IMG/VR virus record: IMGVR_UViG_3300032278_000003
Coordinates: 2,968 to 66,967 of that record
Reading direction: 5' to 3' (one strand)
Source of the DNA: a virus
DNA: 64,000 bases
The translations under genes and the position numbers were made by a program. Numbering within the stretch: the first letter of the stretch is position 1; each line of letters starts with the position of its first letter. Under the pieces are notes generated by a model. It saw only the letters and a program-made list of their open reading frames with translations. It was not told the origin of the DNA and ran no database searches. This document shows positions 1-57,506 of this stretch, one piece after another.

Positions 1-1932
1 CGTAGACCAAGCTTTAGCATAATCTCCAGAAAATGGTGAATCGCTAATTTCTGCGTCAGAAGGAGCAGCAACAAAAGCTTCGATGGCTGGAGCTAGCTCA
101 TTCTCAACAGGGAGATCTAAGTAAAGCAAGTGATTAGTTGACTTGAACTTGTGCGGGTCGGTGTTTAAAACTTTAGAAATGTATGACGGATGCTCTGGAT
201 CAAGTGACGTAGTGATTGTCCTGTAAATTGTTTTATTATCAGAACTAATAATAAGAAGCTTAAACTCAGAAGAAGCAATTGCTGCGCGGCCGTCGGTCTG
301 GAGAACATTAGAGAAATTACCTCCATCGCCTAAAGCAAAAGCTATCGGATCGATGGCGGCGTCTGTGTCTGTCCGGACAAATTCCAAATTATCTACAGTA
401 TTGGTAATAGAAGTATTTCCTGATTGTCCCTTAACGGCCTGCGTTATTACAAGGTGAGTTTTTCCGCCGGCGGCGCCGATGGCTGCATAAGTAAAAGCAG
501 CTCCGTGAGTTGCGACTAAAGCAGCTCTTAATTGAGTTAAGAAATCAGCTATAGTACTAGCATCTGTTAATGCTAACGCGATATCGTTTTCCGCTCCTGC
601 AGTCTGAGCGCCTCCAGAAAAAGAAGTTCCTGGCTCGAAGACGACTGTGCCGGCGTTGTTAGCAAACGTAACGCTATGAGCTTGTTCACCGGGTCGTGTT
701 GCCCTAAGGGTGATATTCTCACCATCATTACCGTTAATCGCAAAAATCCCTGGTATACCACCGACAGCTGCTTGGGCTTGGAGAGCTCCACCAGCGGGGT
801 CGTTGTCGCCCGATGTGCCGGCAGCAGCAAACCGAATCTTAGCGTCGCCGGCGACACCGTTAATCGCTTTGACTACTAAATCTCTAATAGCAGTATCGGC
901 GATACCGTTAGCGTTAATACCAATTCGATTATCAGCTTCGTCTGGAAGTCCAGTTGCATCGATTAATATCTGAACGCCCGCAGCCGGACCACCGGCGTTT
1001 ACTGGTACTGTAATTGTAAAAGCATTGTCATCCGCGACGCTGTCCAACTCAAGTTTGTTTGCAAGATCAGTGGGTAAAGCCGCAGTAATAAGAGCCCTAG
1101 CACCTAAAACATTTCCTGTCACTAAAGCTGTCTGTGCTGTGGCTGAGTCTGTATCTGAATTTACCGAATCAACAACAACGTATGTCTTCGAATTTGGCGT
1201 ACTTCCATTGTGAGAAATCAGGGTAATTTTATCGCCGAAAGTATAATCAGCATTTGCTGTTGTTCCCTGTATCTTAACTGACGCGTTAACGTCATCCCCG
1301 GCTGGATCATAATCACTGTACGTAAATGTATCCGCGGATGCCATCGCTGTCAAGCGATAACCGCTAGTCGTATAAACTACGCCGCGTAAAAGCTGGGTTT
1401 CAGCTCCGCGGTTTACCTGAACGCTTGGGTTATCGTTAAGGATGGGATACGTTACAAGAGCGGACTGCGAAGATCCGGCGACATTTAAATCATGATTTGC
1501 TGTAATAAAATAGACACCACCTTGAAGAAGATTCTGAGATACTGCTCTAACTCCCGCGGCCCTCTTTACCAAGTTAGCTGACGTCGCGCCATGTACCTTA
1601 AAACCGGCTCCCTTGACTATACCAGCAGTTCTAGTGTTATCGCGGTCTGCCGCGGTGGCGTTTCCGCCCGCACCTAAAACTCTCATGAAAGTCAAAGCCC
1701 GCTTATTCTTAAGGAACTCAAACGCCGCATAAACAGCTGGAAGGTCTGGGTGGAGGTCACCGAACCTGTTTATAAAATCTGTAAAATCACCTACTGTCAC
1801 AGGGACAAATGCAGGACCCTTTGCTGCTGTGCCCACAACGCCTCCAGGAATTCCTGAAGTTGCCTGTCGCCTTGCCGCAAGGTCGATTTCTCTCTCAAAA
1901 AACCCTGGGGATCTGAATGTTTGCTCTACCAT
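1..1932 (-). CDS. Contractile tail sheath protein (T4 gp18-like), 5' part; runs off the left edge of the window
   Basis: Not in the ORF track because it has no stop in the window. Manual translation from ATG at 1932 (AGGAG SD upstream) gives MVEQTFRSPGFFEREIDL...VVGTAAKGPAFVPVTV...FINRFG...EFLKNKRALTFMRVLG, the typical sheath N-terminus (SPG-x-x-x-REID, G-x-A-x-KGP, F-x-x-x-FG, RV). It lies downstream of the neck genes. Confidence 0.92.
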   Translation of the reverse strand, partial: MVEQTFRSPGFFEREIDLAARRQATSGIPGGVVGTAAKGPAFVPVTVGDFTDFINRFGDLHPDLPAVYAAFEFLKNKRALTFMRVLGAGGNATAADRDNTRTAGIVKGAGFKVHGATSANLVKRAAGVRAVSQNLLQGGVYFITANHDLNVAGSSQSALVTYPILNDNPSVQVNRGAETQLLRGVVYTTSGYRLTAMASADTFTYSDYDPAGDDVNASVKIQGTTANADYTFGDKITLISHNGSTPNSKTYVVVDSVNSDTDSATAQTALVTGNVLGARALITAALPTDLANKLELDSVADDNAFTITVPVNAGGPAAGVQILIDATGLPDEADNRIGINANGIADTAIRDLVVKAINGVAGDAKIRFAAAGTSGDNDPAGGALQAQAAVGGIPGIFAINGNDGENITLRATRPGEQAHSVTFANNAGTVVFEPGTSFSGGAQTAGAENDIALALTDASTIADFLTQLRAALVATHGAAFTYAAIGAAGGKTHLVITQAVKGQSGNTSITNTVDNLEFVRTDTDAAIDPIAFALGDGGNFSNVLQTDGRAAIASSEFKLLIISSDNKTIYRTITTSLDPEHPSYISKVLNTDPHKFKSTNHLLYLDLPVENELAPAIEAFVAAPSDAEISDSPFSGDYAKAWST

Positions 1933-5230: not shown

Positions 5231-5569
5231 TTAGCCAAGGCTTCTTATGCACACCCAGCTTGAACCATCGAATACAGCAAGAACCCAATCTCCGATATTC
5301 GTAAGTCGTATGTCGCCGGTAGTACAGTTTGTGCCTAAAACATCACAATGAGCTTCCGAATCTGATACTATTAACTTAATAGCGCCAGTTGTGGCTGCAG
5401 CTGGTAAAGTTAAATCGTTACCTGCAACGAAGCCATCAGCGACGATTGTCAAAAATGTCGTAGCGTCTAACGCAGCAGTCGCTGCGACTGTTACTTTTGA
5501 GTCAATAGCAAAGCCGTTACCAGTCGCGCTTTGGACTAAACCTTTTACAAAATCTATATCAATTTTCAT
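5231..5569 (-). CDS. Small virion (probable capsid decoration/cement) protein, paralog 3
   Basis: 112 aa; MKIDIDFVKGLVQ...LDATTFLT...TLPA...GAIK...GD...FDG..W pattern shared with two upstream paralogs; AGGAG SD. Function inferred from position near the MCP. Confidence 0.55.
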   Translation of the reverse strand: MKIDIDFVKGLVQSATGNGFAIDSKVTVAATAALDATTFLTIVADGFVAGNDLTLPAAATTGAIKLIVSDSEAHCDVLGTNCTTGDIRLTNIGDWVLAVFDGSSWVCIRSLG

Positions 5570-5581
5570 TTTAATCTCCTA

Positions 5582-5911
5582 TTAACCGTTAGTTCTCATT
5601 ACTTGCCACTCGGTACCATCAAAGATACAAATAGCGCCGTCGCCGACTGCATTGAATGTAATGTTGCCAATAGTGGCATTGGCGCCCATAAGCTTACTAC
5701 CCACAGCAACCGTGTTGACTACTACCTTGATAGCACCGGTAGCGGCTGAAGCCGGTAAGGTACATTCATGAGCCGTTTCTATTTCTGTCAAAAAGGTAGT
5801 AGCATCAAGAGTAGCATCACCACCGTTTACTACGACTCTTGAATCGATACCAAAACCTGCGCCCGATTCTTGGACGAGGCCTTTTGTGAAATCTATATTA
5901 ATCTTTGGCAT
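5582..5911 (-). CDS. Small virion (probable capsid decoration) protein, paralog 2
   Basis: 109 aa, MPKINIDFTKGLVQE...; AAGGAG SD. Confidence 0.55.
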   Translation of the reverse strand: MPKINIDFTKGLVQESGAGFGIDSRVVVNGGDATLDATTFLTEIETAHECTLPASAATGAIKVVVNTVAVGSKLMGANATIGNITFNAVGDGAICIFDGTEWQVMRTNG

Positions 5912-5922
5912 TTCTATTCTCC

Positions 5923-6258
5923 TTAACCGTTAGTTACAAGAACTACCCAGGCAGTTCCGTTATAAATGCAAACAGCGCCGTCGCCGATTTCACCGAAAGT
6001 TATATCAGCGCCACCTTCGGTGACGGCATTGGCTGCCTTAATGACTCCAGCAGCTGCAGCAGTCATAGCAAGAACTTTGATAGCTCCAGTTTCTGCTGAA
6101 GCCGGTAAAGTTACTTCGTGGGCACCGGCAACTTTGGTTAAAAATGTCGTAGCGTCTAACGCAGCATCGTCAGCAATTGTAACGCTAGAATTAATACCAA
6201 AACCCGAACCAGTCTCTTGAACGAGACCCTTCGTAAAGTCTATATTAATTTTTGGCAT
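5923..6258 (-). CDS. Small virion (probable capsid decoration) protein, paralog 1
   Basis: True start is ATG at 6258 (MPKINIDFTKGLVQE, identical N-terminus to paralog 2, AAGGAG SD), not 6291 as in the ORF track. Confidence 0.55.
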   Translation of the reverse strand: MPKINIDFTKGLVQETGSGFGINSSVTIADDAALDATTFLTKVAGAHEVTLPASAETGAIKVLAMTAAAAGVIKAANAVTEGGADITFGEIGDGAVCIYNGTAWVVLVTNG

Positions 6259-6274
6259 GATCTTTCTCCTTTTT

Positions 6275-6332
6275 TGTCTGCAAGATTCCACACCGCCGGC
6301 AGGGTCGACTGATCAAAATGATGCGGGCCTAC
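6275..6332 (-). ncRNA. Candidate structured 5'-leader RNA upstream of the paralog triplet
   Basis: GC-rich island in AT-rich intergenic DNA between a promoter-like ATAATTA (6336-6342) and the SD; it can be folded by eye into a long interrupted hairpin (GCAUCAUUUUG/UGGAAUCUUGC and AUC-A-GUCG/CGGC-GGU). Confidence 0.35.
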
Positions 6333-8430: not shown

Positions 8431-10314
8431 TTAGATAATGTCCATGTCCAAACATGTAACAGTACCGTAGAAATCACCGCGGACCATCTTCTTGCCGTAG
8501 CGAGTCATGACACCCTTACGTGGGGTGAAGTCCTCTGGCTGGAAGATTGTCGGAGTGACAATCAGCGGTACATACGGAGCGTAGACATAACCTGTCTCCA
8601 AATAGCTACCACCCTTAAAACCAACAAGGATCCTGTTGCGTGGGAAGTATGGGTCCTTGTAAACCGTAAAACGGCTTGTAAGGGTACCAACTGCTTCAGC
8701 ACCGATGCTCATTGGGCTAGCAACTTGACCGTCACTATCGAGGCTCAATGCTGGCTTATAAAGTATGGAAGATTCCAAAACAGTAGCAATCTCAGGGCTG
8801 ACAACTATAAAGTTAGCAGCACCACGAAGAGTGCGACGATGGATCTCGTTAGCAACATCAATGATCGTCTCGATGAGAGTCTCATACCACTCGCGGACCG
8901 TACCTGTAAAAGCAGGTCCGGGTCGTAGTGACGTAGCTCGCGAAACAGCCACACCAGTTCTCTTATTAACGAAGTTACCAGGTGAGCGGCTCCAAAAGTA
9001 GTTAGCTGCCTCAGCGCCATTAAGAAGATCACCAAGGATCTCACGATCAATCTCAAGAGCAACCTGCTCCGAGAGGATCTGAGTGAGCTCAACCTCAGCA
9101 TCTAAGCTGTGATAAGCGTTCAAATCCTGCGCGAGTTCTGGTGACCACTTAGCGCGTAGCTTACGGGTCTCAGCAACAACAGGTACTGACTCAATCTTGA
9201 TATCAATCTCTGGAATAGTGCTCTCTGCAGCAAAGCTAGACTCGAAGGCCGGTGAAACGATAGTCGACATATCAGCTGAATCTGTAGCCGATGGTAAGAC
9301 ATAATCGAATGCAGCATGCTGGTCAGCGCCATCGCTGAAGTCAGCAGAAACAATCTGCGTCGCATCAGTTTCGTGAAGCTTGACAACCATCAATACGTGA
9401 GTATGATCAGCGGCATTGGAAAGTACCTGAGTTGAATCTTTGTCTACCCAAGCTTTAATTAGCCGGTTAAGACGACGAACGTTAAGAATTCCCTCTCCGC
9501 CCTGGACAGCATCTGGTACTTCCACAACACCAGCAATAGCGACCGCGGCAGCAAACAGCGATACTTCTTGGACCATCGTTAAATCCATGCCTGGCAAACA
9601 AGCTTTTGGTACTGCCAATAAAGCATAATTAGCACCAGCTTCTAGTTCAGCAGTAATCTGAGGATCGTGAGAATACCAAGCAGCGTCAGCTGTTGTCAAC
9701 TTAAGAGTATCCACCCGCGCGGTGTTTGTGGCTGCTGTTCCGGGGATAAATAAATTACCGACCGCAAGAGTATCCAAAGTGTCGTTACTGACGGAACCAA
9801 CATTTTTCTTACGCGCTTTTGAATAACCAGTACCGGTTAAGTCGTATTGACCACCAGCTGCTAGCGCTGGTGTGCCAGCTTTAGGATTCGTTGGTGTGCC
9901 GTAGATTGACTCACCCTTATCGTAGGAAGCTTCAGATGCAGTACCATCACCACCGACCGAAGAACCATATGTGTAATCCAGATAGAAAAGCAGACCGGAA
10001 GGAAGGCTCATTGGCTGGATCGAGACAAGCTCGTTAGCAATCAATCCACCGAAAACTCGGCGAACGATCGGGAACGCAATATTTGTGAAACCACGGATAG
10101 ATGAATCACCTACAGTGCCGGCACCGAGACTAGAAGCCTCGCGCAGTGCCTGCCCTGCCTGATTTTCAAGCATAGTGGCCATGTTTTCGCGCTTAACTCC
10201 TTCGAGTCCGCGCAAGAGACCAGTACGGCCCCATTTTTCTAACAGTCGACGATTCGCAGTACCAATATTGCGTGATTTGATACCCTCAGTCAACTGACTC
10301 AATGAAAAACTCAT
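8431..10314 (-). CDS. Major capsid protein (T4 gp23-like, HK97 fold)
   Basis: 627 aa; FPIVRRVFGGLIANELVSIQPMSLPSGLLFYLDY, TRKLRAKWSPELAQDLNAYH, EIDREIL, GYVYAPYVPL and FTPRKGVMTRYG are gp23 signature motifs; AAGGAG SD. Confidence 0.97.
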   Translation of the reverse strand: MSFSLSQLTEGIKSRNIGTANRRLLEKWGRTGLLRGLEGVKRENMATMLENQAGQALREASSLGAGTVGDSSIRGFTNIAFPIVRRVFGGLIANELVSIQPMSLPSGLLFYLDYTYGSSVGGDGTASEASYDKGESIYGTPTNPKAGTPALAAGGQYDLTGTGYSKARKKNVGSVSNDTLDTLAVGNLFIPGTAATNTARVDTLKLTTADAAWYSHDPQITAELEAGANYALLAVPKACLPGMDLTMVQEVSLFAAAVAIAGVVEVPDAVQGGEGILNVRRLNRLIKAWVDKDSTQVLSNAADHTHVLMVVKLHETDATQIVSADFSDGADQHAAFDYVLPSATDSADMSTIVSPAFESSFAAESTIPEIDIKIESVPVVAETRKLRAKWSPELAQDLNAYHSLDAEVELTQILSEQVALEIDREILGDLLNGAEAANYFWSRSPGNFVNKRTGVAVSRATSLRPGPAFTGTVREWYETLIETIIDVANEIHRRTLRGAANFIVVSPEIATVLESSILYKPALSLDSDGQVASPMSIGAEAVGTLTSRFTVYKDPYFPRNRILVGFKGGSYLETGYVYAPYVPLIVTPTIFQPEDFTPRKGVMTRYGKKMVRGDFYGTVTCLDMDII

Positions 10315-19737: not shown

Positions 19738-19998
19738 CTAAAAAAACCTATACCTCGGTTTAAATCCTGATTTCTTTCTCAATAGCCACTCGTCAACTTC
19801 TTTCTGACCCGGCTTCCAATCTTGACCCAAAAAATTCTTATTGGGTTCTATAAAACATATAAAGCACTCTGAGCAAGAATCGTGGTTGTAGACGCTGATA
19901 GTATCTTCTAAAGTTTGAAGTATACCAGAGCACACCGGACAATTGACAGCAAAGCTTTTTTCTCTTTCGTCTATATAAATATCAACAAAATTACTCAT
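19738..19998 (-). CDS. Small Zn-finger protein
   Basis: 86 aa with CPVC...CSEC; overlaps the Mre11-Rad50 stop. Confidence 0.65.
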   Translation of the reverse strand: MSNFVDIYIDEREKSFAVNCPVCSGILQTLEDTISVYNHDSCSECFICFIEPNKNFLGQDWKPGQKEVDEWLLRKKSGFKPRYRFF

Positions 19999-22900
19999 GA
20001 ACTACCAAAGAATTCTTTCCCTTATTTCTAATGTCTAAAACGTTATCAACAACATCTTTAATTGCATCTATGTGCGAGATCACCAATATACACTTAAACC
20101 ATTTTTTAAGAGACAGCAACAAACGGCTGCAAGCTTCTATGTTCCCATCATCGAGAGCACCGAAACCCTCATCAATTATAAGCAAATCTGACTTTGGTAA
20201 ATTAGATACATTAATTAAAGCCACCCTGATGGCCAAAGATGATAACATTTTCTCCATACCAGACGCACACTCTATTACGCGCTTTGAGTCACCGTAATTA
20301 ATAAATACGTCAAGAGCATTCGTGTTTTCTTCAGCCTCGATGTCGACAGTGAATTCTACAACTCCATGAAGTATCTTTTCGATTTCAGCGTTTATGATGG
20401 GAAGCTGCACACTCATTATTTTTAGCGGTATGCCTTTTTTATCAACTGCTTGAAGAAAAGCAGTATAAACATTCCACTTCTTTTTTAGCTCAGCAAATTT
20501 TTCTCTTTCTTCCTCTAGATCAGAAAGCACCTGCTGGTTTAAACCTATTTTCTCGCTGAGGCTTAGCCTTTCGGAGTCAAGAAAATTAGCGCGAGTAGAT
20601 AGCATTTTTAGCTTGCTCTTTAGACGATTAATCTCTTTTGCCTCTGAACTTTCTGTCGCATTTAACTTCATTTTTGATAACTGGTTCTTAGAATCTTGAA
20701 GCTCTTGGTTAATGTTAGTATCTTCAACTTCAAGCTCCCTCAAAGACACGACCATGCCGCTTTTTTCAAGCTTTGAATCTGATTCTGACTTTAATATATC
20801 TTCGTATTTACTGACTTTATCCTCTAGCGACTCACCCAGCATTTTTTTCAAGCTTCTCTTTATTGCGGAACAGTTAGACGAAATCTCTGTGACTTTTTCT
20901 TGCTGCAGCGGAATGTTTTCTTTTGCAATGTGGGAATCTTTGATGAATTTGCACTTTGGGAACTGAGTTCCGCAGGGAACAACTTCCAGAGTGCTAGCAC
21001 ATTTTTTCTGGTTCTTTAAAAGAGTCTTTTCTCTCTCGAGCATGTGCTGTATCGATTGTAAATTAACCTCGATCTCTTTTTGTTGCTGCAGGTTTTCTTT
21101 TAACTCTTCAATCGGAAACTGTTCTTTTATCAAGGATATTTTTTCAAGCTTATTATCGATCTCGTTGATACTGTCAGAGATGGATAATATCCTTCTTTGC
21201 ATAGACATGCTTCTTTTTAGCAAGTCATCGATATGCTTAACTTGATCTCTTATCTCATCTTCAGTAAAATCTTCAGAATTTTCGTGAGTTGCTAACAAAA
21301 GCTTTAAGCTATCAACTTCTTCTCGTATAATCTTTGACTGTTCTTCAACCTCTATTCTTTCTTGCACAAATGATTCTAACTCGAACCTTTTATTCCTGAT
21401 AATAGAAGACCAGTCTCTATCTGGAGCGCTTTTCATTGAACCCTTAAGTTCTGAAAACTCTGCTTTAGCGATATTCAGCATGCTGTCAAATATGCCCAAA
21501 TCCAAAAACTTAGTAAGTATAGATTTCCTGACTGTTGCGCCGTTACAGATGAAGTTATTCATCCCTCCCTGGCTGGCTAAAGATGTCAGAAGAAAATCTT
21601 CCGCAGACCCGACTAAAAGCTTAAGATCTTTCTCTGTTTCCCTTCTTTGTTCGCCGCTAAGATCTTCTACTTTTTCACCGTTCGATAATACCTTCCAAAG
21701 GTTTAAGCTCGTTGAGGCATTGGTCTTTCCAGACCTCATTGTATGCTTAACAGACTGCCTCTCTGTCCTGTATAATATTCCGTTAACGTTAAAATCTATA
21801 TTAACTTGACAAAAACCTTTTCTTGAATTGATGATATGCAAATTTTTGATAGCGCCACGATCGGTTGTATTAAAAAGCCCGTACATCATAGCACCAGGAA
21901 TCGATGATTTTCCAGACCTGTTTTTACCAAAAATGCCAGTTATGCCTGGAAGCTTATCAAAATCAATTGCGTTTCCAGTTCCGTAACCAAAAGTATTATC
22001 AAACCTCATCTTTTTTAAAGACCACTTTAAGTTTTTCTTGCTTTCGTTACGAGCGGCTTCCGAAGCAATTCTTTTCGTCATGTCTTCAAGGATACTGCGC
22101 TCATCGTTGCTTAAAACATAAGTCTTAGTATACTCGTTCATGAGTTTAACGTGAGTCGATGGGTTAGATAAATCAGACTTATTCAGTGTCGTATCACCGA
22201 TGGTGATCGTCTCATCGTGCGTATCATCTACATCCCACTTAAAAACGACTTCAGTCGATAAGTAATTCTCTTTTAACTCATTCGCTAGCTGTTTTATCTC
22301 ACTTTGTGGTATTGTCGTTGAAGACCTGATCCTAAATCTTCCCTGCTTCATCGATTCATCCACCACCACTAAAGTTTTTTCAATACTTCCCTCCCAGGGG
22401 ATTGTATAAAACGAACGTGGGTTAGAAACAGCGACAAACTTAACGTCAAAATCATCACGATCTCTAATGTCCCATATGAGGTATCCTTTGTCCGGATCTT
22501 CTCCATAATTCTGTTGTATTGTGCTACCTGGATAAGCTATGCGCTGATCTTCAACAAGGAATTGTGATTTATGAATATCACCCAAAAAAGCAAAATCAAA
22601 ATCTTTAAAAAACTCTGCATTTATCTGGTCGTTTTCGCTAATTTCGAAATCACTATCGACTTTGCATCCCCAAACCGGTCCGTGAAACAAGGCTATACTT
22701 AAGCCCTGTGGGCTTGGGTTTACTTCCTCCCAGGATTCTTCATCAAAACACGAAAAGACACACCAGCTAACACCGTGACCCTCTATCGGATATGTTCCGG
22801 ACTGTTTGTACAGTTTAATGTTATCATCGCCTATAGCTTCAACAATCGGGGTGATAGCATCTTGCCTGTCTTTGTTCAAGATGAGACCGTCGTGATTGCC

Positions 22901-23140
22901 CAGGATCGCGTGAACGGGGGCGATTGATGCTAATCCCTTAAACCACCAGACTAAAACTTGAATTAATTCTGGAGAAATGCCTTGAGTCTTCGAGTGTACT
23001 ATATCGCCACCGATGAATATAGCGTCTAAATCTTCGTCTCTTAAATCGGAAAATATTCTTTCGAAAACTTCGATATACTCATCGTGACGTGATAGCCCTC
23101 GAAAGTGAATGTCAGCAAAATGTGCGCATCGAAAACTCAT
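19991..23140 (-). CDS. Fused Mre11/SbcD nuclease - Rad50/SbcC ATPase (gp47-gp46 fusion)
   Basis: N-terminal metallophosphoesterase motifs ADIH, GGD, GNHD, HG and GDIH; then Walker A GKNRSGKSS, Q-loop, coiled coil, signature SGMEK, Walker B LLIIDEGFGALD and H-loop ISH, all in one 1049-aa ORF. Confidence 0.93.
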   Translation of the reverse strand: MSFRCAHFADIHFRGLSRHDEYIEVFERIFSDLRDEDLDAIFIGGDIVHSKTQGISPELIQVLVWWFKGLASIAPVHAILGNHDGLILNKDRQDAITPIVEAIGDDNIKLYKQSGTYPIEGHGVSWCVFSCFDEESWEEVNPSPQGLSIALFHGPVWGCKVDSDFEISENDQINAEFFKDFDFAFLGDIHKSQFLVEDQRIAYPGSTIQQNYGEDPDKGYLIWDIRDRDDFDVKFVAVSNPRSFYTIPWEGSIEKTLVVVDESMKQGRFRIRSSTTIPQSEIKQLANELKENYLSTEVVFKWDVDDTHDETITIGDTTLNKSDLSNPSTHVKLMNEYTKTYVLSNDERSILEDMTKRIASEAARNESKKNLKWSLKKMRFDNTFGYGTGNAIDFDKLPGITGIFGKNRSGKSSIPGAMMYGLFNTTDRGAIKNLHIINSRKGFCQVNIDFNVNGILYRTERQSVKHTMRSGKTNASTSLNLWKVLSNGEKVEDLSGEQRRETEKDLKLLVGSAEDFLLTSLASQGGMNNFICNGATVRKSILTKFLDLGIFDSMLNIAKAEFSELKGSMKSAPDRDWSSIIRNKRFELESFVQERIEVEEQSKIIREEVDSLKLLLATHENSEDFTEDEIRDQVKHIDDLLKRSMSMQRRILSISDSINEIDNKLEKISLIKEQFPIEELKENLQQQKEIEVNLQSIQHMLEREKTLLKNQKKCASTLEVVPCGTQFPKCKFIKDSHIAKENIPLQQEKVTEISSNCSAIKRSLKKMLGESLEDKVSKYEDILKSESDSKLEKSGMVVSLRELEVEDTNINQELQDSKNQLSKMKLNATESSEAKEINRLKSKLKMLSTRANFLDSERLSLSEKIGLNQQVLSDLEEEREKFAELKKKWNVYTAFLQAVDKKGIPLKIMSVQLPIINAEIEKILHGVVEFTVDIEAEENTNALDVFINYGDSKRVIECASGMEKMLSSLAIRVALINVSNLPKSDLLIIDEGFGALDDGNIEACSRLLLSLKKWFKCILVISHIDAIKDVVDNVLDIRNKGKNSLVVHE

Positions 23141-52514: not shown

Positions 52515-55500
52515 TCAGATAATGTTTATCGTCACATGATCGTCAACAAAAAGATTAAAACCAAAAATTATGTTATTTGTCGGCTGCAAATAGTAATCGT
52601 AACTTGAGCCGCTAAGAAGCAAGACACCATTAACGAAGACATCGATCCTTTCTGGATCGTATGATACCGTACTGAAATTATAACTAGTTGAAAATGCGTT
52701 ACCAGCGGCTAAGTCTGTAGCGATTACTTGCGTTATTTTCTTCCTGCTTATGTCTAAATCAATAAACCCAGGCGAATCTGTAGTTAAACTTAGTAAGCTA
52801 GAAACACGAAAAACTTTCTCGTTAGACAAAACGCTATGGGATTCAAAAGTTATAACTGGGGAATCTCTGGGAGCAGCTCCTTCAGATATAACGACGTCTA
52901 GAAGATCATCAACTTGAACTTCAAAAGCAAACTTAAGAGTGCTAGCACCAGTCAAATAGTAATCTGCGCCTGAAGCTGCTACTTCGCTAGCTGAACCCGA
53001 ATGCATCAACATACCGTTCAAAAACACATCAATGGAATTTGGATCGTAATCTACAGCTGATAAATCGGTGCTTCCAACTGTTATATTTGTAAGAGCTGAC
53101 GTTTGCGATAACGCATATACGTCTTTATCTCGGCCGCCACCGTCGCCGGCGAGGCCGACTGGACCGACCAAAGTCTTAAGTTGAGTTAAGCTGATCTTTT
53201 TAACTGCGTTACTGTCGCTAGCATCTGATATAGCTATTGAGTCTAAAAGATTACCAGCGTTCGAATCTGCACCGAGACTATTGATGTCTAAATTAAGAGT
53301 TGCTGCGCCCTGAGTTGCTCCGCCGCTAAGGCCGGTTCCTGCAACAACAGAGGTTATATCACCGCTACCGCCGGCGCCTAAATTAAGTAGCTGCGTTATA
53401 GTGATCTTCTTAACTGCGTTACTGTCACTAGCATCTGATATTGCGATCGTATCTGCAACATTACCAGCGTTTGTATCAGCATCAAGGCTGTTGATATCTA
53501 AATTAACAGTTGCTGCGCCAGAGTTCGCGCCTCCTGAAAGACCTGTGCCTGCAACAACTGAAGTTATATCGCCAGAACCGTCGCCTCCGATTAACGTCTG
53601 GAGTTGAGTCAAAGTAATCTTTTTGCTTAAGTTACTGTCGCTAGCATCAGCAATAGCCATTGTATCAGCTAAGTTTCCAGCATTACCATCAGCAGCTAGA
53701 CCGTGGACATTGAGGCGTAAATTATCAGACCCATCGTCTTCAAGACCGACACCAGCGATGTCAGCTGGTTCGATAGCTAACTCAGAAGAAACAATTTTGA
53801 GACCAGCAGAGCTCTTAAGATCTAGCGCAAATTCGGTGCCTGATAAGTCTAGACCATCACCAGCTGTATAAGTCGTATCCGTGTCAGTATTAACTCGAGC
53901 TTTAAGCTGAGTTAACGTAATCTTTTTAGTCGCGTTGCTGTCGCTAGCATCTGAAATTGCGATAGAATCTGCTAAAGCTCCAGCATTCCCATCGGCAGCT
54001 AAACCATTAATGTCTACAGCTAGCTCAGTAGAATCGATTTTGAGACCACCCGTCGACTTGAGATCAAGAGCAAATTCAGTACCTGATAAATCTAAGCCGT
54101 TACCGGCAGTATAAGTTGTATTTGTATCAGCTGAAGCAATCGTAACAGCATCAGAACCAGCAACTGTTGTTATGGTAACGTTAGATCCAGGTATTAGTGT
54201 CAACGTATCAGCTGCAGAATCAGCTACTACATCATCTTGTCCGGAAATAGACGTGACAAGAGTAAACCCAGCAGCGTCACCGAAATTACCGCTATTATTA
54301 TTACCCGGATCTTCTGTTACTGTCACTGTAGATCCGGAATCAGGTTCTACGGTGAAAGACGCATCAGTTGATGTATTTCCTGCGACAGCTGTTGCTGTAA
54401 CATTCAAGGAACCAGCATTTATCTCTGAAACAAACTCAGCAACGACATCAGCAGCTGACCTGTCTGTTCCGCCACCGACGGTTGTTGCTGACGCTGTACT
54501 AGATCCGCTATTGTCGTCAACAGTAAAGTCATGATTTGTGGATCCGTCACTGAACCTCAATATAATATTGCTTGGAACTGTACCGTAGCTTCCCATACCA
54601 AAATTATTAGTAAACCGAACTTTTTTACCGGGCGGGCCGATAGAAATAGTTTTAAATGCATTGCTTGCGCCAGAACCACTGCCAACAAGAGTTTTAAGCT
54701 GAGTCAGCGTGATCTTTTTGCTTAGATTACTGTCACTAGCATCTGCAATAGCAATTGAATCACTTAAGTTACCGGCGTTTCCATCAGCGGCTAGACCGTG
54801 CACATTCAATCTTAGATTATCAGACCCATCATCCTCAAGACCGACACCTGCTAGGTCTGCTGGTTCGATAGCTAACTCAGAAGAAACAATTTTGAGACCA
54901 GCTGATGCTTTGAGATCTAGCGCAAACTCAGTACCTGACAAATCGAGACCGTTACCAGCGGTATATGTTGTATTTGTATCAGTGTTAACCGCTGCTTTAA
55001 GTTGAGTTAACGTGATCTTCTTGGTCAAGTTACTATCGCTAGCATCAGCTATCGCGATTGAATCGCTTAGATTTCCAGCGTTTCCATCAGCTGCTAAGCC
55101 ATGAACATTTAGCCTAAGTTTATCAGATCCACCGTCTTCAAGACCGACACCGGCAAAATCTGCAGGTTCAACTGCTAATTCTGTAGATACTATTTTTAAA
55201 CCGCCAGCAGAAGAGCCACCGGTGAACTGTGATGCAATAGCAATACCAGCCCCACTCGGATCGTTGAAAGAGATAGTCGTATTTCCAGCAGAACCAGCAG
55301 TGGCTTGAGTTAACGTTATCGTTGGACCGGACGATTCTCCATCAGAAACAGCTGTTATCTTTCCGTTATGACCGCCTGAGTGGTTGATTCCTGCAGTCAG
55401 CTTAGCACCAATTGCAGCCTTATCAAAATCGAGGCCTTGAATCTTTATGACTGGACCGGTGTTGTCTGGGGCAGAGTTCTTATCAAACGTATAATTGACC

Positions 55501-57506
55501 GATGTTCCGTCTGTTGATATTATTGTGATATCAGCATCATGATAATTATCAATCATCCCACCATCGCACCTAATCGACCCAACAGCAGCAACTGCTTCTT
55601 TTAAATCTACGCTAAAAGCAGTCCCAGCCAAATCTAGACCGTTGCCGGCCGTGTATGTTGTATTAGTGTCAGTATTTACCAAAGTTTTAAGCTGAGTCAG
55701 TGTGATCTTTTTGACATTATCGCTATCGCTAGCATCAGCTATCGCGATTGCATCGCTTAGATTTCCAGCATTACCGTCAGCACCAAGGCTGTTGATGTCT
55801 AAGTTAACTGTTGCTGCGCCAGAATTAGCACCACCCGACAGGCCGGTTCCGGCTACGACAGAAGTAATGTCTCCGGAACCACCGCTACCGATTAATGTCT
55901 GGAGTTGAGTCAAAGTGATCTTCTTACTTAGATTACTGTCACTAGCATCAGCAATGGCCATTGTATCAGCTAAGTTTCCAGCATTACCATCAGCAGCTAG
56001 ACCGTGAACGTTCAGTCGCAAGTTGTCAGATCCATCATCATCGAGACCGACACCAGCAATATCAGCTGGTTCGATAGCTAGTTCGGAAGAAACAATTTTG
56101 AGGCCAGATGAAGATTTAAGATCAAGAGCAAATTCAGTACCTGATAAATCTAGACCATCCCCAGCGGTGTAAGTTGTGTTTGTATCGGTATTAACAACTG
56201 CTTTGAGCTGGGTTAACGTAATCTTCTTGACTGCATTACTGTCACTAGCGTCTGCAATAGCCATTGAATCTGCGAGAGCTCCTGCATTTCCATCAGCAGA
56301 CAAACCGTCTATATCCAAATTGACTGTTGCTGCGCCCGATGTAGCACCGCCGCTAAGACCTGTTCCAGCGACGACTTCTGTAATGTCGCCACTCCCACCA
56401 CTGCCGATTAATGTTTGAAGTTGTGTCAATGTAATCTTTTTGCTTAAGTTGCTATCGCTAGCGTCAGCAATCGCGATTGCATCGCTTAGATTTCCAGCAT
56501 TACCGTCAGCGGCTAGGCCATGAACGTTTAATCTTAAATTATCTGATCCATCGTCTTCGAGACCGACACCAGCAATATCAGCCGGCTCAACAGCTAATTC
56601 GGAAGATACTATTTTGAGACCAGCAGAACTCTTAAGATCTAGTGCAAATTCAGTACCAGACAAGTCTAAGCCGTCGCCGGGAGTATAGGTTGTATTAGTG
56701 TCAGTATTAACCACCGCTTTAAGCTGGGTTAACGTGATCTTTTTAGTCGCGTTGCTATCACTGGCATCAGCAATTGTCATTGAATCAGCTAAGTTACCAG
56801 CGTTAGAGTCGGTTGGTAAGCTATCGACGTTTAAATTAACTGTTGCTGCACCAGAATTTGCACCACCACTAAGACCGGTTCCAGCTATCACACTTGTGAT
56901 GTCTCCAGAGCCTCCAGAAGACTCGCTTAAATAATCCCCAATATACAAAAAGGCTTCTATATAAGTTGGATTCTGTGCATGGTCTCCAGTCCCTGGCGGG
57001 TCTTGTTGAAATAGCACACCATTAAAATAATCTAAGTTCCAGTCCCGATCATCGAGCAATGGTATCTGAGTTCCAGAGCCTATTGTACCGTAAAAAGGCT
57101 TTGCTTCATAAGCAGTCGCAAAAGATGATGGAATTAATTGAAGCGTTCCGCCTGTTTCATGCAAAAGCTTACCGTTGGTAAAATTTCCAGTTCCCGCTTT
57201 TGAGTTAGAAGAGTTTGCTACGTAATCATCTGGCAACTTTATCTCAAAACCATGGCGACCATCAACAGTATTCGTACCAGATTTAAAAGAGCAAGGTAAA
57301 CGTAAAAACTCAACGTTGCCAGTGATAGTATATGGAGAAGCAGAATTCGGACTAGCAGTTATTGCATCAGCGAATATAGTCGTAGTAGACATCGTGATAC
57401 CAGAAGGTAACGGTTCGTTGGCTAATCCTTTATCATTAGAAGTGTGAGCTTTGCCTGATAGCTTTTTAAGAGATATTAACCGTTCGGTTTTTGCATCATA
57501 TCCCAT
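52515..57506 (-). CDS. Giant modular fibre protein (1663 aa)
   Basis: 11 copies of the D-x-NAG...DASDS...KKI(T/S)(L/I)TQL module alternating with TYTAGDGLDLSGTEF and GDITSVVAGTGLSGG modules; two C-terminal IDVF-x-NG domains. Confidence 0.82.
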   Translation of the reverse strand: MGYDAKTERLISLKKLSGKAHTSNDKGLANEPLPSGITMSTTTIFADAITASPNSASPYTITGNVEFLRLPCSFKSGTNTVDGRHGFEIKLPDDYVANSSNSKAGTGNFTNGKLLHETGGTLQLIPSSFATAYEAKPFYGTIGSGTQIPLLDDRDWNLDYFNGVLFQQDPPGTGDHAQNPTYIEAFLYIGDYLSESSGGSGDITSVIAGTGLSGGANSGAATVNLNVDSLPTDSNAGNLADSMTIADASDSNATKKITLTQLKAVVNTDTNTTYTPGDGLDLSGTEFALDLKSSAGLKIVSSELAVEPADIAGVGLEDDGSDNLRLNVHGLAADGNAGNLSDAIAIADASDSNLSKKITLTQLQTLIGSGGSGDITEVVAGTGLSGGATSGAATVNLDIDGLSADGNAGALADSMAIADASDSNAVKKITLTQLKAVVNTDTNTTYTAGDGLDLSGTEFALDLKSSSGLKIVSSELAIEPADIAGVGLDDDGSDNLRLNVHGLAADGNAGNLADTMAIADASDSNLSKKITLTQLQTLIGSGGSGDITSVVAGTGLSGGANSGAATVNLDINSLGADGNAGNLSDAIAIADASDSDNVKKITLTQLKTLVNTDTNTTYTAGNGLDLAGTAFSVDLKEAVAAVGSIRCDGGMIDNYHDADITIISTDGTSVNYTFDKNSAPDNTGPVIKIQGLDFDKAAIGAKLTAGINHSGGHNGKITAVSDGESSGPTITLTQATAGSAGNTTISFNDPSGAGIAIASQFTGGSSAGGLKIVSTELAVEPADFAGVGLEDGGSDKLRLNVHGLAADGNAGNLSDSIAIADASDSNLTKKITLTQLKAAVNTDTNTTYTAGNGLDLSGTEFALDLKASAGLKIVSSELAIEPADLAGVGLEDDGSDNLRLNVHGLAADGNAGNLSDSIAIADASDSNLSKKITLTQLKTLVGSGSGASNAFKTISIGPPGKKVRFTNNFGMGSYGTVPSNIILRFSDGSTNHDFTVDDNSGSSTASATTVGGGTDRSAADVVAEFVSEINAGSLNVTATAVAGNTSTDASFTVEPDSGSTVTVTEDPGNNNSGNFGDAAGFTLVTSISGQDDVVADSAADTLTLIPGSNVTITTVAGSDAVTIASADTNTTYTAGNGLDLSGTEFALDLKSTGGLKIDSTELAVDINGLAADGNAGALADSIAISDASDSNATKKITLTQLKARVNTDTDTTYTAGDGLDLSGTEFALDLKSSAGLKIVSSELAIEPADIAGVGLEDDGSDNLRLNVHGLAADGNAGNLADTMAIADASDSNLSKKITLTQLQTLIGGDGSGDITSVVAGTGLSGGANSGAATVNLDINSLDADTNAGNVADTIAISDASDSNAVKKITITQLLNLGAGGSGDITSVVAGTGLSGGATQGAATLNLDINSLGADSNAGNLLDSIAISDASDSNAVKKISLTQLKTLVGPVGLAGDGGGRDKDVYALSQTSALTNITVGSTDLSAVDYDPNSIDVFLNGMLMHSGSASEVAASGADYYLTGASTLKFAFEVQVDDLLDVVISEGAAPRDSPVITFESHSVLSNEKVFRVSSLLSLTTDSPGFIDLDISRKKITQVIATDLAAGNAFSTSYNFSTVSYDPERIDVFVNGVLLLSGSSYDYYLQPTNNIIFGFNLFVDDHVTINII

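Follow-up and report, generated by a model that had tools for sequence, protein, structure and literature searches.

A tail sheath of an uncultured myophage with a probable nest of two distantly related modules on one exchangeable loop

In the sheath protein gp18 of phage T4, domain I lies within domain II, which itself lies within domain III. We analyzed a 64,000-nucleotide stretch of viral DNA (the window; bases 2968 to 66967 of the 66,967-base viral contig IMGVR_UViG_3300032278_000003, CheckV completeness of ~27%) in which a tail sheath gene encodes, on one exchangeable loop, what is probably a nested composite: a small module, here called F, split in two by a module of a distantly related sister family. 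We put the probability of this reading at about 0.7. The sheath passages of the survey by Evseev et al. (2022; PMC9230969) describe a myophage sheath core built from the N and C termini, with extra domains inserted outward, away from the tube, some of them formed by two returning chain segments; jumbo-phage sheaths reach at least five domains, and some genomes have two sheath copies. The sheath studied here is like these multi-domain sheaths in that its Pfam core lies at residues 32-85 and 1193-1402, with ~1100 amino acids (aa) between, and in that a second paralogue follows the gene. Unlike the sheaths named in those passages it is far longer (1410 aa), and unlike the multi-domain sheaths surveyed its extra levels are small modules swapped between near-identical backbones. 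The word "nested" is absent from the main text of the survey.

Three further comparisons frame what follows. The XM1 study likens the sheath insertion domain to FliD D3 (PMC10457771); the F module shares just 16-20% identity with this insertion domain (InD/D3) in the sheaths of XM1, Mu, Milano, A-1(L), and PhiTE and, unlike InD/D3 of simple sheaths, sits atop further sheath domains, in 0 to at least 3 copies, and occurs in fibres too. In the Geovibrio thiophilus flagellin, as far as its outer domains D4/D5 are described in PMC11532411, a FliD-like outer domain carries its own duplicate in a loop. Our sheath is like that flagellin in having what is probably a FliD-like outer domain nested in its own kind on the subunit of a helical filament; unlike the bacterial flagellin, where duplication was direct, the insert in this sheath belongs to a diverged sister family, and it is two other sequences, P0138 and L062, that show direct F-in-F nests. 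Fraser et al. (2006), as quoted in PMC9230969, described promiscuous immunoglobulin (Ig)-like decoration domains of phages. By that quoted account the modules resemble them as small accessories hopping among structural proteins (sheath, fibre, baseplate) that are thought to bind cells weakly; unlike them, the F module is predicted to combine a barrel with a helix in the manner of FliD D3, no Ig-like chain was among the best structural rows, and Pfam scans of the sheath and modules gave no match to Ig families. Domain-in-domain sheaths, dual sheath copies, a FliD-like insertion domain, and a FliD-like nest in flagellin are thus already known, and the composite is an elaboration of a known way in which sheaths and flagella grow, not a new kind of machine. 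In the literature searched, supplements aside, we found no description of these module families, of a same-kind nest in a sheath, or of cassettes being swapped at a single loop in two sheath paralogues.

The sheath protein of the window (P0003; all residue numbers refer to its 1410 aa) matches Phage_sheath_1C (PF17482) at residues 1304-1402 with 31.5 bits, above the cut-off of 26.9. Matches to Phage_sheath_1 (PF04984; residues 1193-1298, 27.4 bits, cut-off 31.4) and Gp18_domIII_N (PF22671; residues 32-85, 17-18.5 bits, cut-off 27) are below their cut-offs but fall in the order expected for a sheath, and precomputed Pfam assignments list PF04984 and PF17482 for this protein and most of its homologues, of which 1448 were recovered (8000 candidates scored). 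A PHROGs search gave no match on the sheath. Genes for a head-tail adaptor, major head protein, protease, portal, and large terminase lie on the same strand, forming a myophage structural block, and the nearest cultured relative, Microcystis phage Mel-JY01, is not close (32.7% identity over 51% of the query). The gene product is the sheath of the contractile tail of a large, uncultured myophage of marine type. An earlier note on this DNA had quoted peptides and coordinates for the sheath, which the minus-strand frame at 1-1932 reproduces; its peptide for the outer N half, ASVKIQG..KTYVVVD, spans residues 217-255 (window 1168-1284). The gene and the parts of its loop are as follows:

Window 1..1932, minus strand: open reading frame (ORF), codons 1-644 of the tail sheath gene, which runs beyond the window start.
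G000:C1:670-4899: the whole sheath gene, 1410 codons, 1410-aa product.
Window 274..1350, minus strand: hypervariable, putative surface loop, residues 195-553 (359 aa between conserved anchors), delimited by MAFFT alignment.
Window 1165..1284, minus strand: putative outer (F-type) module, N half, residues 217-256, strand ASVKIQ and hairpin ITLISHNG..SKTYVVVD.
Window 1021..1164, minus strand: residues 257-304, putatively a long beta2-beta3 loop (or a linker) within the outer module.
Window 610..1020, minus strand: inner module, residues 305-441 (envelope of the hidden Markov model [HMM], 294-443), FTITVP..FSGG.
Window 328..582, minus strand: putative outer (F-type) module, C half, residues 451-535, strand IALALT, helix, and THG..LVITQAVKGQSGNTSIT..FALG.

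The loop was compared across the 120 best sheath homologues, P0003 included, in a MAFFT alignment in which residues were counted between P0003 anchors 194 and 554. Fewer than 50 residues were present in 112 of the 120, 350-375 in three (P0003, P0004, and P0006), 208 in P0005, 251 in P0015, and 162-175 in another three (P0008, P0009, and P0021; P0020 and P0021 are fragments). Homologous sheaths therefore do not share the region as one invariant domain, 112 of the 120 being without it, and among related sheaths the loop holds 0, 1, or 2 modules, the outcome for which the earlier note had proposed to look. The 162-175-aa insert of P0008, P0009, and P0021 is a domain related to neither module family (hhalign probabilities of 1.0% and 0.4%), and the 251-aa insert of P0015 reaches 47.9% to the inner family only.

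Three lines of evidence support a discontinuous outer domain of the same sequence family as an insert found in a tail fibre of this phage (residues 637-764 of the fibre, described below); these rest on sequence profiles, backed by a fold of the two halves. One is that the separated segments match complementary, co-linear parts of the F profile. A first HMM, built from the direct matches of the fibre insert only, found residues 473-524 of P0006 with 27.6 bits, P0005 with 17.5 bits, and residues 435-512 of P0003 with 16.0 bits (E, 1.7e-4). A second HMM was made from 45 fibre-type modules, with every sheath bearing a loop insert excluded, and gave split matches in all three double sheaths:

P0003: N part 233-272 on profile positions 3-39, 7.2 bits (E, 0.052); C part 453-513 on 33-93, 21.9 bits (E, 1.4e-6).
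P0004: N part 233-265 on 3-32, 10.1 bits; C part 454-520 on 28-94, 14.7 bits.
P0006: N part 234-268 on 3-32, 3.2 bits; C part 454-524 on 26-93, 27.5 bits.

A third HMM, from a 77-row alignment (76 modules of viral contigs plus the fibre insert), reproduced the split match in these sheaths. Across the HMMs, the N half of P0003 aligned at residues 228-272 to profile positions 3-41 and the C half at residues 441-517 to positions 29-102 (16-21.9 bits; E, 1.7e-4 to 1.1e-6), and a comparable division was seen in L143, a second sheath paralogue from another contig. With hhalign, an alignment of the three long loops matched the 77-row alignment twice, in separate and co-linear stretches: residues 460-518 on positions 59-118 (93.1%; E, 3.3e-7) and residues 233-256 on positions 21-41 (82.2%; E, 1e-5). 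The outer domain of the sheath reads ITLISHNG..SKTY, THG, LVITQAVKGQSGNTSIT, FALG, with the NGHNG landmark of the F family partly kept. Another line is P0005, which has the host F module unbroken at the same loop (residues 232-370, one match to profile positions 9-100, 23.6 bits with the 77-row HMM), and the last is that the intervening segment exists alone in other proteins. When residues 213-275 and 445-540 were folded as two chains, the score was 0.70 and that of the best of three controls 0.00; a mark of 0.70 is attained by 58 of 80 solved complexes and 2 of 110 mismatched pairs, counts that apply only approximately to chains with their own shallow 6-row alignments. The N half packs on the C half in these models (contact agreement between runs, at least 67%; partner pLDDT [predicted local distance difference test], at least 50). 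Halves of one fold may pass such a test via likeness to solved structures, and the two-chain fold is taken as support for, rather than proof of, one compact outer domain. The claim of the earlier note that the outer domain is split and that its joined halves look like the fibre insert is supported by the profile, hhalign, and two-chain evidence.

The reference for the F family is the fibre insert, whose location in the earlier note corresponds exactly to residues 637-764 of the fibre ORF:

Window 52515..57506, minus strand: ORF of a 1663-aa repetitive tail-fibre-like protein with an unbroken F module.
Window 55215..55598, minus strand: F module within one fibre repeat, fibre residues 637-764.

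Set against an unbroken repeat of the same protein, this module adds a clean block of 129 aa at the junction of ..DLK and SSAGGLKIVS.., and the ORF as a whole has no informative Pfam or PHROG match. A search with the insert returned 15 proteins at an E of ≤0.01 (2024 candidates), 4 of them sheaths; a scan of viral contigs with the F profile returned 70 loci, and the fibre insert itself scores 85.6-130.9 bits on the family profile. The signature is strongly conserved, with the landmarks TITIISTDGTSKTY, NGHNGKIT, LTLTQ..G..GNTTIT, and F.GG. AlphaFold2 (AF2) with the 77-row alignment gave a model with a pLDDT of 77.8 and a predicted template modeling score (pTM) of 0.77, with strands at 4-11, 23-27, 33-38, and 50-53, a helix at 60-72, and strands at 81-85, 93-101, 109-112, and 119-126; the sheath insertion point maps onto the low-confidence loop between strands 33-38 and 50-53. 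Foldseek of this model against the PDB gave nothing at an E of ≤0.001; the list was headed by FliD D2-D3 and the sheaths of A-1(L), Mu, and Milano (E, 0.018-0.06), the matched ranges of the sheath structures being the insertion domain, and Sf14 and T7-type tail proteins came further down in the structural comparison. Superposition on solved FliD-D3/insertion-domain members covers most of the domain. T4 gp18 was not among the VIA rows of this comparison, an absence that does not exclude it. Against BFVD the model had 17 matches at an E of ≤1e-3, the best at 4.5e-8 with a TM score of 0.80, some of them named baseplate J-like. On these models the F module is predicted to be a beta-barrel with one helix, in the fold class of FliD D3, the outer domains of flagellin, and the sheath insertion domain as seen in Mu, A-1(L), and PhiTE. 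By sequence, the PDB held no match for the modules (best E, 0.38), Pfam gave four unrelated single matches among 77 F members and none among 12 inner members, and the ESM Atlas gave only unnamed clusters (≤0.92).

The same fibre holds an apparent second plug-in of ~130 aa (window 54252-54638, minus strand; fibre residues ~957-1085), seen by eye between FKTISI and SGQDDVVADS, a motif that is unbroken (FKTIAVSGQSSVVADS) in the adjacent 2162-aa protein. It has a strand-helix-strand look, and its hhalign probability is just 4.3% against the F family and 0.4% against the inner one.

The segment that interrupts the outer domain is, from its occurrences elsewhere, a self-contained module. A HMMER search with the 321-aa region against 1.84 billion representatives gave four matches at an E of ≤1e-3, and in three of them (P0123, P0125, and P0126) the aligned region is confined to the inner part; the remaining one, the repetitive 1275-aa protein P0124, is missed by the inner-family HMM and was for that reason dropped as a carrier. 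Six further proteins, including sheaths of 749, 751, and 1193 aa, were then brought in by a profile of six inner segments, and the inner module is unbroken in P0123, P0125, P0126, and P0142-P0147; in the sheaths P0143, P0144, and P0146 it stands alone, at about residues 160-320. The family numbers 13 instances in 12 proteins at 42-205 bits (42-165 bits where alone, 149-205 bits on P0003), and single-segment scans of viral contigs found no relative. For the inner domain, the end proposed in the earlier note (~610) agrees with ours, but its start (~1100) takes in the 48-aa linker, the module beginning at 1020. This linker, residues 257-304, is kept in P0004, P0006, and the L143 composite, and comparable long loops occur in some uninterrupted F modules (P0136, L012, and L014).

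The inner and F families do not form one sequence family; a relation appears only at the profile-profile level, where hhalign probabilities were 7.2%, 40.7%, and 55.4% with 6 inner rows, 85.9% (E, 5.2e-6) with 12, 91.7% and 81.1% with 13, and 80.8% with the 10 rows that remain when the three double sheaths are excluded. The pairwise profile comparison proposed in the earlier note accordingly comes out well for the outer halves against F and, given deep inner alignments (81-92%), for the inner module against F, but not with shallow ones (7-55%). From the strand that precedes the helix, through the helix itself and the ITL..G..GN strand, the alignment stays co-linear as far as the F.GG end. Against a real score of 37.5, reversed alignments scored 11.9 and 13.4 and 40 column shuffles ≤14.7 (0.8%), and other inserts at the sheath loop gave 1-4%, P0015 apart. 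Unprompted, MAFFT placed the C-terminal parts of the inner family onto the outer C half and F helices onto the inner helix. Distant common ancestry of the two families, as separate sequence families, is on this profile evidence probable, if well short of certain. The earlier note had seen the second domain as another copy of the first; it is indeed self-contained and unbroken elsewhere, but it belongs to a sister family linked by profile-profile comparison only, and the nest in the sheath is an insertion of a related module, not a self-duplication.

Several results weigh against the nested reading. BLASTP found no significant match of the inner module to the fibre insert or to the outer domain, and for the outer C half against the fibre insert it gave a weak one (E, 0.003; 13/35 identities); phmmer within the contig, run with single segments, likewise gave nothing significant. 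The N-half match is weak when taken alone (7.2-7.7 bits for P0003 and 3.2 for P0006). The family HMMs do not cross-detect, since inner modules score ≤8.6 bits with the F HMM and F modules ≤6.8 bits with the inner one, neither significant; the hhalign probability varies with alignment depth, and the inner part of the three-sequence sheath alignment reaches just 1.1% against F. AF2 of sheath residues 196-560 (7-row alignment) was unusable (pLDDT, 38.5; pTM, 0.31) and served just for a low-confidence order of secondary structure. Some of these points would favor an ordinary heterologous insertion, in which the nest consists of two unrelated domains and the inner one owes its F-like strand-strand-strand-helix-strand order and G..GN motif to convergence or composition: there is no cross-detection, the shallow hhalign values are low (7.2% and 1.1%), the inner module is known from sequence alone, and both families are Gly, Ala, and Thr rich. 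Composition and convergence account poorly, however, for probabilities of 81-92% with 12-13 inner rows that stay similar without the window's own clade, for co-linearity through to the F.GG end, for controls at ≤0.8% and unrelated loop inserts at 1-4%, and for the placement that MAFFT made by itself, and we regard two unrelated domains as unlikely, though this is the alternative to be taken most seriously.

The weak N-half matches in P0003 and P0006 and the low-confidence model of the whole region would also suit a tandem of remnants, that is, a leftover N fragment of F, an inner-type domain, and an N-truncated F module, with the fragments folding separately. This is very improbable: the N part is kept in P0003, P0004, P0006, and L143 down to 33% overall identity, the profile coordinates of the halves are complementary and non-redundant, the two-chain fold stands far above its best control, and the pattern of N part, full module, and C part arose independently in P0138 and L062. 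That the similarity is due to chance or low complexity, the region being a single idiosyncratic domain, draws on the weak BLASTP scores between segments and on biased composition; it is barely credible, however, against the absence of the region from 112 of the 120 best homologues, C-half profile E values of 1e-6 to 1e-7, and an inner module that scores 42-165 bits alone in other proteins.

Exchange at the loop is apparent from close relatives of the sheath. P0005 is 96-97% identical to it over the backbone (residues 554-1410) and 34% over the loop; the corresponding values are 83-90% and 71% for P0004 and 66-81% and 51% for P0006. In a loop-masked tree of 26 rows (fragments P0020 and P0021 excluded), the loop variants all group together in a single clade of 8 (Shimodaira-Hasegawa-like approximate likelihood ratio test [SH-aLRT], 99), and the double state takes 3 changes. 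Since backbones 96-97% identical carry wholly different loops, the loop appears to be under diversifying exchange, which points to a testable role in contact with the environment or the host. At the DNA level, no flanking direct repeats surround the insert, and no repeats occur in window 250-1400, which indicates an old divergence rather than a recent duplication. The inner segment has a G+C content (GC) of ~0.51, with most of the sheath gene at 0.40-0.46; a recent acquisition was considered on this account and set aside as a composition effect, the N terminus being equally high (0.50). A 94-aa ORF (minus strand, other frame) and an 87-aa ORF (plus strand) overlap the inner-module coding sequence at window 573-973 and are most likely spurious, the sequence there being Gly/Ala rich and of higher GC.

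A second sheath-like gene (L003:1-642, minus strand; G000:C1:1-642) starts 25 bases after the sheath stop, outside the window. Over its first 93 aa it shares 44% identity with the sheath, and an F module begins at residues 151-214, at the contig end. The paralogue has 225 relatives in viral contigs, of which the closest, L074, is 85% identical and has three tandem F modules. Modules were present in 17 of 80 such sequences examined from related contigs: at least three tandem F modules in six (L074 included), one F module in three, one inner-type module in seven, and a composite in L143. The latter runs as F 9-63, then inner 2-129, then F 35-109, and its cassette is co-linear with the composite of our sheath (33% identity over 289 aa; E, 5e-21); a profile of the composite (A6) recovered just the L143 contig again from the viral contigs. 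F also interrupts F. P0138, at locus L045, reads F 2-53, full F 1-108, then F 42-109 (35, 103, and 44.5 bits), and in L062 the succession is F 2-35, F 9-91, and F 36-108; the scan for split F modules covered all sequences of the analysis, P0003 and P0006 falling under its threshold owing to their weak N-part matches. Taken together, these observations support modules that are mobile and a composite cassette that moves as a unit. The mobility proposed in the earlier note holds for the fibre plug-in, the loop swap in P0005, and the L143 cassette, whereas recursive growth is found in P0138/L045 and L062 but not, in the strict sense, in our sheath, where a sister-family module was taken up. Nor is there one module of ~130 aa: the F core measures ~105-110 aa and the inner module ~135-150 aa.

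We propose that the loop after residue ~205 of a peripheral sheath domain acts as a hot spot for small decoration modules. An F-type module would occupy it, and the beta2-beta3 loop of that module would have taken a second module from the sister family; the chain would then pass from the sheath through the first strands of the outer module and the linker into the whole inner module, and on through the rest of the outer module back to the sheath, and the domain-within-domain plan usual for sheaths would gain two further levels. The F family is likewise plugged into the tail fibre and the second sheath paralogue of this phage, and loop cassettes would be swapped by recombination among otherwise near-identical sheaths. 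If additions point away from the tube as in the other sheaths described in the survey passages (PMC9230969), each subunit along the tail may bear the composite as a projecting two-tier knob, and its hundreds of copies per tail may provide weak multivalent adhesion to host or particle surfaces, or stabilize the lattice. The adhesion role is suggested by analogy with the accessory sheath domains treated in the same passages, and fast exchange at the loop together with module sharing with fibres and baseplate-like proteins would fit it. A broader, quite speculative extension, which we consider rather doubtful at present, is that the beta2-beta3 and beta3-helix loops are privileged sites taking modules repeatedly, that single, tandem, and nested cassettes shuttle among sheath paralogues, fibres, and baseplate, and that the whole tail is a fast-evolving multivalent host-binding surface, the sheath sharing in host range.

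If the nested composite is right, very large sheaths may be enlarged by small exchangeable modules piled onto a single tolerant loop, reaching four levels of domain within domain. The analysis also defines two module families, neither covered by Pfam, and points to a natural scaffold that would accept whole-domain insertion, even into itself, which may be of use for display engineering on tails or polysheaths.

Other parts of the window are given here as minor observations. Very large ORFs of 2592, 910, 946, 2001, 1663, and >2162 aa lie at 31978-63998 (minus strand), with no PHROG match; those of 2001, 1663, and >2162 aa consist of repeats of ~100 aa ending in KKITLTQLK-like motifs and are presumably fibres or whiskers. 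At 5231-6291 (minus strand), tandem ORFs of 112, 109, and 122 aa gave the best phmmer scores to the sheath loop and fibre insert, at a non-significant E of 0.16-0.9, and were not found by the family HMMs. The 627-aa major head protein (8431-10314, minus strand) has a PHROG match only at residues 341-609, leaving ~340 N-terminal residues unmatched. Lastly, a 1049-aa ORF at 19991-23140 (minus strand) matches SbcD-like (residues 1-368) and SbcC-like (residues 295-1047) nuclease subunits, which suggests a fused SbcDC.

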